Assembly: GCA_963630775.1 (NCBI GenBank)
Contig: CAVGNU010000002.1
Coordinates: 3,406-67,405 of the forward strand
DNA: 64,000 nt
Source of the DNA: Bacteroides fragilis
GTDB taxonomy: Bacteria > Pseudomonadota > Alphaproteobacteria > Rs-D84
Direction: 5' to 3'
Positions 1,158-4,271 of this stretch are shown here, in pieces (position 1 is the first letter of the stretch; every line of letters starts with the position of its first letter). The notes beneath the pieces are model-generated. The model was not told the DNA's origin. It made no database searches and saw only the letters and a program-made list of their open reading frames with translations. The position numbers and the translations under genes are program-made.

Positions 1158-4100
1158 TTATTCAATGCTGGTGGTAATGATATCACCGTATGTGCCGGCC
1201 TCGTCCCCGCCAACATAGCAACTGATATGTTTACCAACGCTGTTCATCCATTCGTTGTACGCGGCCTTTTGCGCGGCGTCCATCTCTGTATCCTGAATGT
1301 CACGTGTTGCGCGGTTCAACAGGAATGCACCCGCCGTACCAACAGTCACCGCACCAATGGTTGAACCAATCCATGTCTTGCTCTGTGCGCTGGACTTGTT
1401 ACCAGATGCGCTGGCCAAATCCGCCTGAGATTGACATGCGTTGCTCAAACGATCCAACGCGGTGTTGTATGCATCGCATTTCGCCTTGTTATCGCCAGTG
1501 CAATCATTGCCCAGTGCGGTGAATGCCGACGAAACCGAGTTCTGAATTTCAGACGCAACTTTCAACTGTGACGCGAAATCGATCGCCGTGTTCACACCAT
1601 TTTCATATGTCGATTTGTCAAAGACAGCGTTTGTTGTCGTTATCTTGGCATCACGTGCATATTGCTGGCATAATTTGCGCGCCTTTTCAGATGCGTCCTG
1701 GTTGTCTGAAACCTTGTTCAGACCAGTCAATTTGCTGAACGCAGAACCATCTTGCAAACTTGCGCCCAGATATGCGCCACCAACCGTACCACCCAGCGCA
1801 CCCAATACCGTCATCCATGTGCGGGTACGTTTCTGGGCCGCTTCTTTGTCTGCGGTTGCGTCATCAGCAACGGCGTTGGCGATTTCTTCTAATTCAGAAT
1901 TTGGAATCCAGCTGCCACATGTGAAACTGTCGCCGACGGCAAAGTATGCAGTTGACCAATTTGTGCCGTTCTGCAATTTTTCCTGAATGCGCTTGTCATC
2001 AGATTGCAGTGTCACACGCACGCGGCAGAACGAACCATACAAATCGTTGCTGGCCGTGAACTGGTTTGCTTTCAGACCATTGACAGTGTATGTCTTGGGC
2101 ACTTTGGTGGATTTCAGTTTAACCCACATATATGTACTGCCAGTGTCCTTAGACCCCATGATGCCACCCTGATTGCTGGACAGGCACATGTTTTGTTCCT
2201 TGGTCAATTTGGCATTGTATTTCGCCTGTGCTTCTTTTTCGATGTCATAAATCAAATCTTTGAACAATGACGATGCCGCCTGTGTTTGCAGGTATGTTGT
2301 GTATGAAACCATAACCGGTGTGTCATACACATTGCCGTTTTCATCAACGGTGTTGCAAACGCCTTGGTCGCCGTTGCTGGCCGTGCAGATAGCATTACCA
2401 TTTTCGTCATATGACTGGACATTTTCTGTGTCCGCGGGCACAGATGTTGCACCGCCCGCATCAATCCAGCCACCACGTACAGACGTTGCATCAGTCCATG
2501 CGCCCGTGCCAGATTTGTTCTGAATCTTTAATTTATTCTGTTCGATTGCCAAGTGCTGTTCACACACAGATGCGTTCTTGACCGTGTCCAAGCACAATCC
2601 CAGTACAACCGTGTAATCCAATACACCGCCAACCTTGTTCATTGATTTATCAAATGAACTGTCGCCTGTGCTGGTCAGGTTGGAATAGATATCTGTACGA
2701 TTGCGATAGCAATTTACGTAATCAGAACCGCACATTGCCTTGACACAACTGGTTGCGACGGACTGGCACTGCTTTTTCATTTGGGCAATGGCCGCATCGC
2801 TGTAAGTGTTCGCCAATGTTGCATTCAGGGATGCAATCACGCCGATTGGATCGGTGCCGCCCGCTTCGTATTCTGGGAACAATGTGTCAAATGCATCGGC
2901 ATTGATATATGCATATGAATATGTGCCGGTTGTATTTGGATTTGTCGCCGCATATTTGCAATACAGGTCGGTGTTCACAACCGCCGCGCAACCGGTCTTG
3001 ATTTCATCATAGCTGACCGAATTGTTGATGGATTTGTCGGTTGCACCGTATACCTGTGAATAGCATGCCGCGCCGTTGCCACCGCCACATACGCGCATTG
3101 CGCATGTCTTGATTGTGTCAACGCACTTTTGCTTTGCACGGGTATCAAATTTTTCAACCAAATCCGTGATTTTCGCCTTCATCGCTGTGTTCATGCGCGC
3201 AGCGTACGCTTCGTCATAAACTTCTTCTTGATTATCGGCATCTTTTAACTGGGACGCGGTTGGCATTGCGCCATTGCCCAAGAATGTGGCATAGCAATAT
3301 TTATTTGCACCAACGGTGTCCAAGCAAGAATTTTTGATATATGCCGCAATGGCAGATGTGCTGACCGTGTCGGCAACAGTCGTTGTTGCGCCCGTTGTCG
3401 CGTCGGCATCGCCACTGTTGATACCATCAACCAGCGCAGTCGTCTGGGTTGATGCGTTTTCATAGCATTTGTATGGGTTTGTTGCGCACGCGTTCAAGAT
3501 ACATTGATCAACAACCTTGTAACATGTGGACACAGCGTTGATTGCCGCCAGTGCCGCCCCCTCTGATATCATTTGACCGATACGGCTGGTTGCCGCAGGG
3601 GTTGTTGTGGTCGTTGTTGAACCGAACAGTTCGATTTTACCGTCGGACTGGCAACGCGCCAATGTAGAATCGCAGAATACCATCTGCTTTTTGAATTCGG
3701 TGTTTGTTGTACACAATTCAAAATCCGCACCACAAACATTTTCTTTCTTTAAGCATGATGTATAACGTTTAACACAGTTTGATGTGTCGTATTTATTAGA
3801 AATCGCCGCACCAACAATCAACTGGCCCAAGACACTGCCGTCGGTGGGGTATGTGTAATCTGTAACCTCGCCATACGTATTCTTGGACGCAACAGTGGAC
3901 AGCGCGGTTGTGCTTGACGTGCCGAACAAACTGGTAATCCCAGACGTACTGCATTGTGCCAATGTGGACAGGCATTGTGGCATTTTTGCGTGGAACAGAA
4001 CCTTGGTCGTGCATTCTTCGAATCCGCTGCCACAGGCATCAGCCCCCTTGATACAAGAGGTATATGCATCAATACATTCGGCATTAGCCAGCAAATTGGA

Positions 4101-4271
4101 CGCCGTTGTTGTTGACGTTGTTGTGCTGGTCACATATGTCGACATTGTCGGCATACGACGCGCCGCATTGCTCATCACACTGGGGCGTGCAGTTGCCGCA
4201 TATGCCGCGGGCAAACATGCAAGAATCGCCACAAAACCGATAGTTTTTTTCAGTAAAAACATTCTGTCCAC
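1158..4271 (-). CDS. Large secreted or membrane-anchored cysteine-rich repeat protein of unknown function
   Basis: 1037-aa ORF with an N-terminal signal peptide (KKTIGFVAILACLPAAYAATA), Thr-rich linkers and about 40 Cys in repeated spacing patterns. Two glycine-zipper-like hydrophobic segments lie near the C-terminus (WMTVLGALGGTVGGAYLGA, WIGSTIGAVTVGTAGAFLL). Confidence 0.7.
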   Translation of the reverse strand: MDRMFLLKKTIGFVAILACLPAAYAATARPSVMSNAARRMPTMSTYVTSTTTSTTTASNLLANAECIDAYTSCIKGADACGSGFEECTTKVLFHAKMPQCLSTLAQCSTSGITSLFGTSSTTALSTVASKNTYGEVTDYTYPTDGSVLGQLIVGAAISNKYDTSNCVKRYTSCLKKENVCGADFELCTTNTEFKKQMVFCDSTLARCQSDGKIELFGSTTTTTTPAATSRIGQMISEGAALAAINAVSTCYKVVDQCILNACATNPYKCYENASTQTTALVDGINSGDADATTGATTTVADTVSTSAIAAYIKNSCLDTVGANKYCYATFLGNGAMPTASQLKDADNQEEVYDEAYAARMNTAMKAKITDLVEKFDTRAKQKCVDTIKTCAMRVCGGGNGAACYSQVYGATDKSINNSVSYDEIKTGCAAVVNTDLYCKYAATNPNTTGTYSYAYINADAFDTLFPEYEAGGTDPIGVIASLNATLANTYSDAAIAQMKKQCQSVATSCVKAMCGSDYVNCYRNRTDIYSNLTSTGDSSFDKSMNKVGGVLDYTVVLGLCLDTVKNASVCEQHLAIEQNKLKIQNKSGTGAWTDATSVRGGWIDAGGATSVPADTENVQSYDENGNAICTASNGDQGVCNTVDENGNVYDTPVMVSYTTYLQTQAASSLFKDLIYDIEKEAQAKYNAKLTKEQNMCLSSNQGGIMGSKDTGSTYMWVKLKSTKVPKTYTVNGLKANQFTASNDLYGSFCRVRVTLQSDDKRIQEKLQNGTNWSTAYFAVGDSFTCGSWIPNSELEEIANAVADDATADKEAAQKRTRTWMTVLGALGGTVGGAYLGASLQDGSAFSKLTGLNKVSDNQDASEKARKLCQQYARDAKITTTNAVFDKSTYENGVNTAIDFASQLKVASEIQNSVSSAFTALGNDCTGDNKAKCDAYNTALDRLSNACQSQADLASASGNKSSAQSKTWIGSTIGAVTVGTAGAFLLNRATRDIQDTEMDAAQKAAYNEWMNSVGKHISCYVGGDEAGTYGDIITTSIE

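Follow-up and report, generated by a model that had tools for sequence, protein, structure and literature searches.

The subject of this analysis is a gene found in a 64,000-nucleotide stretch (hereafter, the window) of contig CAVGNU010000002.1, from an assembly that is named Bacteroides fragilis and has the GTDB lineage Bacteria; Pseudomonadota; Alphaproteobacteria; Rs-D84. The gene occupies positions 1158..4271 on the minus strand, where the open reading frame (ORF) listing of the window gives an intact, GTG-started frame of 1037 amino acids (aa). Its product, hereafter the Cys-rich protein, contains 41 cysteines, which account for 4.0% of the residues, while the corresponding value for the other 49 ORFs of the window is 0.94% (binomial P ~5e-14). 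The gene appears to encode the founding type of an uncharacterised protein family, and its product is, very probably, a disulfide-rich envelope protein of that new family. The parts of the protein are as follows, in the order from the N-terminus, with residues numbered from the GTG.

4197..4262, minus strand: probable start and Sec signal peptide, residues 4-25, cleavage at AYA|A; Met4 is invariant and Cys19 is not conserved
4092..4196, minus strand: conserved post-signal motif TARPSV...RMPT, then a Thr-rich tract, residues 26-60
3918..4091, minus strand: type I module a, residues 61-118, C-x6-C-x6-C-x6-C-x12-C-x6-C...LFG
3618..3791, minus strand: type I module b, residues 161-218
3282..3584, minus strand: type II module a, residues 230-330, with a long helix (C250/C257/C262), then C269, then a helix-turn-helix (C316-x9-C326)
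2943..3188, minus strand: type II module b, residues 362-443
2514..2840, minus strand: type II module c, residues 478-586
1902..2423, minus strand: beta-rich domain with one long helix, residues 617-790, carrying C629, C639, C696, C749 and C785 (CGSW motif)
1752..1817, minus strand: hydrophobic segment H1, residues 819-840, zipper G824-x3-G828-x3-G832-x3-G836
1374..1751, minus strand: fast-evolving, length-variable domain, residues 841-966, a predicted helical bundle with 4 Cys here
1314..1373, minus strand: hydrophobic segment H2, residues 967-986, Gly/Ala-rich
1161..1313, minus strand: conserved tail, residues 987-1037, a helix and then a small beta unit, with the invariant C1018 in C-Y-[IV]-G-G-x-E-x-G-x-Y-G-D

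The original prediction, made from the DNA letters alone, had described an exported protein with about 40 Cys arranged in two type I and three type II modules. The signal peptide and the Thr-rich tracts are present, the 41 Cys lie at the described spacings, and all five of the quoted module sequences were found (residues 65-107, 165-207, 249-270/315-326, 382-404/427-438, and 501-522/559-570). The type I spacing, C-x6-C-x6-C-x6-C-x12-C-x6-C, occurs twice (residues 66-107 and 166-207), and the type II spacing, C-x6-C-x4-C-x6/7-C with a later C-x9-C, occurs three times (residues 250-326, 383-438, and 502-570). The type I copies were found to be homologous: the hhalign probability is 99.2% (E 2.3e-19), and the Smith-Waterman score is 154, as compared with 27.5 ± 5.3 for shuffled sequences (z = 24). 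On this alignment evidence, the pair is a true tandem duplication, as had been predicted. Copy b occurs throughout the family, while copy a is missing from the distant members, and the family hidden Markov model (HMM) matches the protein in two overlapping registers. The repeats were revealed by profile-profile alignment and shuffling; they were not reported by a BLASTP self-comparison of the protein. As for the three type II copies, the claim holds for the Cys pattern and the helix layout, but not for the sequence: the likeness among the copies is weak (hhalign E 0.02-0.09; Smith-Waterman z 1.1-3.8), and they are not demonstrable sequence repeats. In the AlphaFold model, the same layout is seen three times: a long helix with three Cys, a short helix that opens with the fourth Cys, and a helix-turn-helix in which the C-x9-C pair straddles the turn. 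The type II module is thus probably best regarded as a repeated structural pattern, composed of Cys spacing and predicted helices, and not as a proven sequence repeat.

The conservation of the Cys was examined in 47 sequences of 62-99% identity. In this set, 36 Cys are invariant, namely, the 30 module Cys, C629, C639, C696, C749, C785, and C1018; C868 is nearly invariant, and C19, C924, C932, and C946 are not conserved. Most of the 36 Cys are still invariant in an alignment reaching 23% identity. Judging from these alignments, the conservation is not due to chance. An analysis of co-loss among the Cys columns, intended for inferring the pairs, provided no informative signal, since the Cys almost never vary.

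A clearer indication of pairing is provided by the parity of the Cys counts, which was examined over 186 full-length members of the family; their variable domains were also clustered at 40% identity, giving 110 clusters. In 179 of the 186 members, the number of Cys in the N-terminal exported part is odd (the commonest count is 35), and the tail after H2 has one Cys in 183 members and three in the other 3, that is, an odd count in all 186. Together, therefore, these two parts have an even count in about 179 of the 186. In the variable domain, which lies between H1 and H2, the count is 0, 2, 4, 6, or 8 in 168 of the 186 members. After the clustering, the Cys count is even in 106 of the 110 clusters; the share of even clusters is 46-68% for the residues H, W, M, F, Y, P, R, and Q. 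Even Cys counts that persist through such sequence turnover would be a signature of intradomain disulfides, and because the count is nearly always even, we infer that the variable domain lies in an oxidising, extracytoplasmic compartment. An even Cys count per extracytoplasmic unit, conserved in homologues, is the generic mark of a disulfide-bonded exported protein, and this was found here. The other exported proteins of the window are too few to give any parity signal.

These data also bear on the possibility that the Cys serve as metal or cofactor ligands (Zn, Fe-S) or as a redox relay, instead of forming structural disulfides. This explanation would suit strict anaerobic fermenters without respiratory chains (PMC12306168), in which periplasmic oxidation is less obvious, and the 64-kb window showed no Dsb gene. 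However, neither CxxC nor CxxCH nor any other metal-cluster spacing occurs, His is nearly absent (3 in 1037 residues), and no Pfam metal-binding domain was found. All of the module Cys are located within predicted helices or at their termini, with an i/i+7 spacing, and Cys seven residues apart on helices suit helix-helix stapling. Together with the even/odd bookkeeping across the domains, which is a pairing signature, these features make a ligand or relay role very improbable.

Two glycine-zipper-like segments had been predicted in the C-terminal third, and they are indeed located there (residues 819-840 and 967-986). Their hydrophobicity was expressed as the best 19-residue Kyte-Doolittle mean (KD19). 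The family median of KD19 is 1.21 for H1 and 1.52 for H2, and values of 1.6 or more are found in 3% and 17% of the members, respectively. Two proteins of the window served as references. One is an OmpA-family lipoprotein with a Gly-zipper (39415-40113, minus strand), which matches Pfam Gly-zipper_Omp, YMGG, and Rick_17kDa_Anti and has a KD19 of 1.36; the other is the inner-membrane LptF/G, for which the value is 2.76. H1 and H2 are as weakly hydrophobic as outer-membrane glycine zippers.

Two hydrophobic segments that follow a cleaved signal peptide would, by default, be read as an inner-membrane anchor: the N-terminal 790 residues would be periplasmic, H1 and H2 would form a hairpin, residues 841-966 would be a cytoplasmic loop, and the tail would again be periplasmic. 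The tail Cys and the odd N-terminal count suit this topology, as both ends are on one side, and the dN/dS (the ratio of nonsynonymous to synonymous substitution rates) of the loop is below 1, which is compatible with relaxed constraint. Nevertheless, the medians of 1.21 and 1.52 contrast with the 2.76 of the inner-membrane helices of the same genome, and the charges around H1 break the positive-inside rule, with the conserved KRTR placed on the periplasmic side. The evenness of the loop Cys in the 106 clusters, a bias absent for the other residues, also argues against a cytoplasmic loop, and so do their spacings, which are not zinc-finger-like. Furthermore, the long variants of the loop carry extra Cys/Trp/Asn-rich inserts, which are typical of extracytoplasmic domains. 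An inner-membrane hairpin is thus distinctly improbable; an extracytoplasmic variable domain would imply that H1 and H2 do not enclose a cytoplasmic loop.

This variable domain, which was overlooked in the original prediction, is the most informative feature of the protein. It is 82-335 residues long in all but one of the 186 full-length members. When 36 homologues with an overall identity of at least 85% are compared with the query, most 20-residue windows are 95-100% identical, while residues 841-960 are 37-72% identical. By pairwise Nei-Gojobori estimates, dN/dS is 0.05-0.10 for residues 27-818 and 0.14-0.33 for residues 841-966, and in the comparison with locus L006, dN is about five times higher in the variable stretch than in the N-terminal domain (0.176 vs 0.033). 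By these estimates, about 790 residues are under strong purifying selection. The variable domain is not a disordered linker, because AlphaFold gives four helices there at a predicted local distance difference test score (pLDDT) of 72-88.

The family was found to be real but narrow. A word-indexed search found at least 922 homologues at E ≤ 1e-3 among the 8000 candidates scored; they have no Pfam domain recorded, their sole names are "hypothetical protein", and they come from metagenome-assembled genomes (MAGs) of Alphaproteobacteria. When 1.84 billion cluster representatives (50% identity) were scanned exhaustively with HMMER, 242 clusters were obtained at E ≤ 1e-3, and 245 stretches, with one genome per GTDB species, encode a relative. 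The best 80 of these 245 loci are all from gut MAGs, mostly labelled Alphaproteobacteria, "uncultured Rickettsiales", or Candidatus Enterousia, with a few labelled "proteobacterium" or "bacterium"; one of the 80 is a circular 958-kb chromosome. The distant members (23-32% identity) are again proteins of Alphaproteobacteria or Rickettsiales MAGs. As far as these searches indicate, the family is restricted to gut Alphaproteobacteria with reduced genomes (order Rs-D84, Candidatus Enterousia and relatives). The order Rs-D84 is reported to be fermentative, with genomes of 0.75-1.0 Mb, few transporters, and no respiratory chain, and has been proposed to be an obligate symbiont or parasite (PMC12306168). 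Since the window also encodes LptD, LptF/G, LpxD, Skp/OmpH, a BamB-like protein, OmpA-family proteins, and MreB, the host is a diderm with lipopolysaccharide.

No relation of this family to known families or folds was detected, in agreement with the earlier statement that the modules match no characterised domain. Scans of the query against Pfam and NCBIfam gave 0 matches at E ≤ 1, and a Pfam scan of 33 relatives gave sub-threshold noise only: two relatives match PF05433 (Rick_17kDa_Anti, best E 0.005) and one matches PF13488 (Gly-zipper_Omp, E 0.015), all below the curated cut-offs, and there is a weak match to C19orf12 in one or two. A profile search against the PDB sequences returned low-complexity matches only (huntingtin, TBP). 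The full-length AlphaFold model has a mean pLDDT of 65.8 and a predicted TM score (pTM) of 0.40, and the pLDDT of 560 residues is 70-90. Helices make up 66% of residues 57-600, residues 617-790 are beta-rich, and these parts are followed by helices and the small C-terminal beta unit. Foldseek found nothing for the full model in the PDB at E ≤ 1e-3 (best E 0.64; generic helical bundles). The best match in BFVD, a tape-measure protein (E 1.2e-3), was rejected, with a TM score of 0.09, a root-mean-square deviation of 40 Å, and a generic long helix as the matched element. For a sub-model of residues 610-1037 (pLDDT 51.6), the top Foldseek matches, Borrelia Vsp1/OspC, are not significant (E 0.12-0.17).

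From its signal peptide, with the KK n-region, a hydrophobic core, and the AYA|A cleavage site, the protein is exported. Tentatively, we favour a Sec-exported, disulfide-stapled periplasmic scaffold, which is anchored by a split glycine-zipper pair lying in the outer membrane, with the variable domain exposed. About 18 intramolecular disulfides would staple antiparallel helices, with twin C-x6-C on facing helices, and a rigid, protease-resistant rod or scaffold would thereby be formed outside the cytoplasm. The C-terminal tail would fold back and be disulfide-linked to the beta domain, as suggested by the odd Cys number of the N-terminal part and the one Cys of the tail. The variable domain would likewise be in the oxidising compartment. 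H1 and H2 would constitute a split helical pair of the 'glycine zipper 2TM' type in the outer membrane, as in SlyB, YfgH, and the Rickettsia 17-kDa antigen. The conserved, disulfide-braced body would remain periplasmic and act as a strut or scaffold of the envelope, while the variable domain would be surface-exposed and could meet the gut environment, phages, or a partner cell. A more specific version would be an undescribed mode of display: a variable disulfide domain carried on the tip of the split zipper pair, with neither a beta-barrel nor a lipid anchor, held by a periplasmic rod of about 16 disulfides that is locked to the tail, and serving as a recogniser of a partner or host or as a target of phages or immunity. 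We regard this version as unlikely.

Several observations weigh against the scaffold with a surface-exposed variable domain. The dN/dS of the variable domain is raised, yet below 1; relaxed constraint would also be compatible with it, and positive selection is not demonstrated. Among the 18 variable domains whose Cys count is not 0, 2, 4, 6, or 8, 15 have a single Cys, and 14 of these 15 are 61-64% identical to the query; in one clade, this domain has a single Cys. Respiratory chains are reported to be absent from the lineage (PMC12306168), and it is questionable how reoxidation of the DsbB type would work. Neither the 64-kb window nor the flanks of related loci, which are a small fraction of a genome, yielded a Dsb gene, and a regular-expression search for Dsb-like CxxC proteins in the related loci gave spurious ORFs only. 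The query has no Pfam glycine-zipper match at E ≤ 1, and known 2TM zippers are contiguous lipoprotein hairpins, whereas H1 and H2 are 126 residues apart here (82-335 in the family, except for one member). Finally, the AlphaFold pLDDT falls to 24-38 precisely at H1 and H2, and the packing between domains is uncertain (pTM 0.40).

Some of the same data would also fit a protein that is not integral to the cell's own membranes but is periplasmic or released, with zippers that oligomerise or insert into the membrane of another cell. Such a pore-former or contact effector of a nutrient-scavenging symbiont would be comparable to VacA, the Caulobacter Cdz bacteriocins, and the glycine-zipper effectors of type VI and type VII secretion systems. 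The Cys parity of all three soluble parts fits a single oxidising compartment, the hydrophobicity of H1 and H2 is marginal, and low AlphaFold confidence at these segments is expected if their ordering needs an oligomer or a membrane. Standard nutrient transporters are missing from the lineage, which is proposed to obtain metabolites from other cells (PMC12306168), and membrane-damaging effectors with glycine zippers are documented (PMC12955049). However, no immunity-like small gene adjoins the Cys-rich gene, no signal or domain of a secretion system was found, and the strong purifying selection, about one chromosomal copy, and stable synteny are those of a housekeeping-like gene and not of an arms-race toxin. 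We therefore consider this alternative to be of low probability.

The sequences flanking the gene contain the following signals.

4271..4274, minus strand: GGAG ribosome-binding site, by direct reading of the sequence
4289..4316, minus strand: promoter-like site TTATCA-16-TATACT with a TG extension, upstream of the Cys-rich gene, by consensus match alone
4349..4367, minus strand: GC-rich hairpin followed by a T-run, after the rluD-like gene, separating that gene from the Cys-rich gene
1130..1153, no strand assigned: terminator-like bidirectional hairpin with a 10 bp stem, shared with the convergent gene at 28-1113

The upstream DNA is AATAATGGAGTGGACAGAATG, in which GGAG lies 8 nt 5' of an ATG at 4262; this GGAG is itself overlapped by the GTG at 4271. 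Because of this spacing, the invariance of Met4, and the length of the database copy P0001 (1034 aa), the true start is most likely the ATG at 4262, giving a 1034-aa product; the 1037-aa numbering is retained for residues. Thus, the ORF of 1037 aa proposed in the original prediction is intact, but its start probably lies three codons downstream. At the other end, the stop codon is 1158-1160, and the hairpin at 1130..1153 is located just beyond it. With these signals on both sides, the gene looks monocistronic. A lipoprotein reading was considered for ILAC at residues 16-19 and rejected: Cys19 is not conserved, and the family consensus is AxA|A followed by TARPSV. The motif of the [TS]ARP[SA][VI] type was found in 137 of 185 full-length members and in one short paralogue. 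A C-terminal sorting domain (PEP-CTERM, GlyGly-CTERM, MYXO-CTERM) and an autotransporter or outer-membrane protein beta-barrel were also rejected, with 0 matches in NCBIfam and Pfam. The protein continues after H2 with the 51-residue conserved tail and ends in ...TTSIE, unlike C-terminal sorting domains, whose transmembrane helix and basic cluster are placed at the very C-terminus, and unlike barrels that end in an aromatic beta-signal.

The gene order around the Cys-rich gene, [479 aa][400 aa][448 aa][171-aa Zn-ribbon/DUF3426/FxLYD][155-aa exported][RluD][Cys-rich gene], is found in 72 of 84 related loci, and a relative with a Cys-rich protein of only 26% identity has it as well. In the window, the 479-, 400-, and 448-aa proteins, which belong to no Pfam family, are encoded consecutively at 6344-10288 on the minus strand. 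The N-terminus is prepilin-like in at least two of them (the 400- and 448-aa proteins), with RG|TSLTEVILSMAIVAIAAPVLY as an example, and a weak match to the GspI N-terminus was obtained for the 400-aa protein (E 0.005). These are followed on the same strand by an MJ0042 zinc-ribbon/DUF3426/FxLYD membrane protein (5808-6323) and a 155-aa exported protein with 4 Cys (5344-5811). The rluD-like ORF (4377-5411, minus strand) overlaps the 155-aa ORF by 68 nt; since its homologues are 318-322 aa, as compared with 344 aa here, the rluD start is probably further downstream. The pilin-like gene set may be a divergent pseudopilus or type IV pilus-like system, in a lineage from which type IV pili have not been reported. 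A member of the lineage does encode an outer-membrane secretin, because secretin and TcpQ-like genes are found in locus L079 (19549-22416, minus strand), an Rs-D84-type MAG, 6-9 kb from its Cys-rich member.

It is conceivable from this neighbourhood that the protein is a surface adhesin, with the Cys-rich domain facing outward, which is carried through the outer membrane by the neighbouring pilin-like set acting as a divergent type II secretion or type IV pilus-like system. The order of the pilin-like, RluD, and Cys-rich genes in the 72 loci, the prepilin-like features of two or more of the three large upstream proteins with the weak GspI match, and the secretin and TcpQ-like genes of the lineage favour this possibility. 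On the other hand, the Cys-rich gene has its own promoter-like site, and a hairpin and the housekeeping rluD intervene. Synteny is lost in several lineages while the gene stays: L060 has an inverted order, and in L049, L056, L079, L083, and others, the gene is not flanked by the cluster. Gene order is, moreover, commonly kept in reduced genomes whatever the function, and an exposed 790-residue domain should vary, yet it is the most conserved part. The adhesin explanation is therefore distinctly unlikely. An operon with the pilin-like cluster was likewise downgraded, because a hairpin and a promoter-like site intervene and synteny is broken in several lineages, and a functional link between the Cys-rich gene and that cluster is possible but unproven. 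In various lineages, the neighbours are envelope-biogenesis genes (LptD/LptFG, Skp/OmpH, LpxD, OmpA, LolCDE-like, Lnt), and other distant members adjoin Lnt, LolCDE-like, cell-division, or phage-like genes. The recurring theme of the neighbourhood is envelope biogenesis.

Other genes in and around these loci are as follows. A 361-aa ORF with 11 Cys (28-1113, plus strand), which converges on the Cys-rich gene, belongs to no Pfam or NCBIfam family; its product is 81-86% identical in the closest genomes and 36-40% identical in 12 others, and it is absent from the flanks in most loci. A coupling protein of the VirD4/TraG type of type IV secretion systems (T4SS-DNA_transf, TraG-D_C, TrwB) is encoded at 20695-22881 on the minus strand of this sub-megabase genome and also in locus L001; the adjoining genes encode two lipoproteins, one LpoB-like and the other, of 423 aa, from an unknown family. 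Of the full-length members examined, the most divergent is P0257 (901 aa, 'Rickettsiales bacterium', locus L087), which is flanked on both sides (4939-9843 and 14635-18932) by phage-like genes for lysozyme, head-tail connector, terminase RNaseH-like protein, and capsid. These flanks could represent a prophage or a gene-transfer-agent remnant, with dnaB also present on the chromosomal island that they enclose.

Paralogues of two kinds were found in the related loci. One is full-length: a 901-aa protein in L089 (6855-9560, minus strand), encoded beside an 1137-aa member in divergent orientation (E 1e-180). The others are about 300 aa long (L056:312-1232, plus strand; L079:17244-18122, minus strand) and have no more in common with the family than the signal peptide, the C-terminal part of the beta domain, and the first glycine zipper. 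The shared beta part begins at about residue 690 and includes the equivalents of C696, C749, and the CGSW Cys785; the L079 protein also has the ARPS motif. Their E values are about 1e-18 to 1e-16 when the two sequences alone are searched and 1.6e-15 and 9e-13 among all of the locus ORFs, and no Pfam family reaches its curated cut-off in them. From this distribution, the beta domain with the glycine zipper looks like an ancestral anchoring core, to which the Cys-helical modules would be an N-terminal elaboration, and the paralogues would point to a wider superfamily of glycine-zipper-anchored envelope proteins in the lineage. When the family HMM was run over the 64-kb window, no member besides the Cys-rich gene was found. 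The 114-aa candidate ORF at 48871-49215 (plus strand), which has a signal peptide and 11 Cys and had been suggested as a possible paralogue, has no Pfam or NCBIfam family and proved to be unrelated to the family profile.

Rs-D84 bacteria are widespread, uncultured inhabitants of the gut of humans and farm animals and are presumed to live at the expense of other cells. In a genome this small, a gene of 3.1 kb that is found in 245 GTDB species representatives and evolves with a dN/dS of about 0.05-0.1 is almost certainly central to envelope building or partner contact. Its product provides a marker protein and a possible surface antigen for detecting or enriching these organisms, and its membrane anchoring may represent a new architecture. 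It would also exemplify the extensive use of disulfides by a strictly fermentative anaerobe without respiratory quinone pathways; the absence of respiratory chains (PMC12306168) makes the source of oxidising power an interesting question. If the simpler readings are true, the protein is one more lineage-specific envelope protein.

Among the known systems, outer-membrane lipoproteins with transmembrane glycine zippers are documented (SlyB, YfgH, OsmB, YiaD; bioRxiv 10.64898/2025.12.22.696046). The glycine zipper 2TM proteins (SlyB/PCP, YfgH, OsmB, YiaD, Rickettsia 17-kDa antigen) resemble the Cys-rich protein in their Gly/Ala-rich GxxxG helices, marginal hydrophobicity, export, and diderm hosts. 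A member of this class with similar hydrophobicity, the lipoprotein at 39415-40113, is encoded in the window, and one or two relatives of the query match the Pfam models of the class weakly. However, the query is not a member of PF05433, PF13488, or PF13441 by HMM (no match at E ≤ 1). It also differs from the SlyB-like lipoproteins in having no conserved lipobox and not being a lipoprotein, and its zipper helices come after, not before, a huge Cys-rich domain.

Lipoproteins are also represented by the variable surface antigens OspC/Vsp of Borrelia, to which the variable domain is similar in being a predicted helical bundle of about 100 residues (pLDDT 72-88). This similarity is not significant (Foldseek TM score 0.3-0.4): four-helix bundles are generic, there is no sequence similarity, and OspC/Vsp have no disulfides.

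Antiparallel helix pairs stapled by Cys at fixed spacing are known from Helicobacter Hcp, which consists of Sel1-like repeats with one disulfide per helix pair, and from the eukaryotic twin-Cx9C proteins of the CHCH type. The concept of repeated, disulfide-stapled antiparallel helix pairs in an exported protein is the same here, with the layout taken from the predicted model. The details are different: neither the query nor the 33 relatives match Sel1 (PF08238), and there is no Pfam match to CHCH (PF06747). The spacings are C-x6-C, C-x12-C, and C-x4-C, with C-x6-C in place of C-x7-C or C-x9-C, and the C-x9-C pairs that do occur are single and straddle a turn. In addition, each module has six Cys, and no similarity to these proteins was seen in sequence or by Foldseek.

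The analogy drawn in the original prediction was with the cross-linked envelope proteins of obligate intracellular bacteria. In chlamydial OmcB/OmcA and the Cys-rich envelope proteins of Anaplasmataceae, disulfide cross-linking is thought to stiffen the envelope. The Rs-D84 lineage, too, has reduced genomes and depends on a host or partner (PMC12306168). With no homology to the chlamydial or rickettsial Cys-rich proteins, including no match to Chlam_OMP6 or DUF11 in Pfam, NCBIfam, and the PDB profile search, the comparison stays an analogy. Unlike OmcB/OmcA, the fold here is predicted to be helical and not beta-rich, and the Cys parity points to intramolecular pairing rather than to intermolecular networks; the host also has peptidoglycan-related genes (MreB and LpoB-like), in distinction from the chlamydial system. 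What fits is the general type: very Cys-rich, exported envelope proteins of host-dependent bacteria with small genomes.

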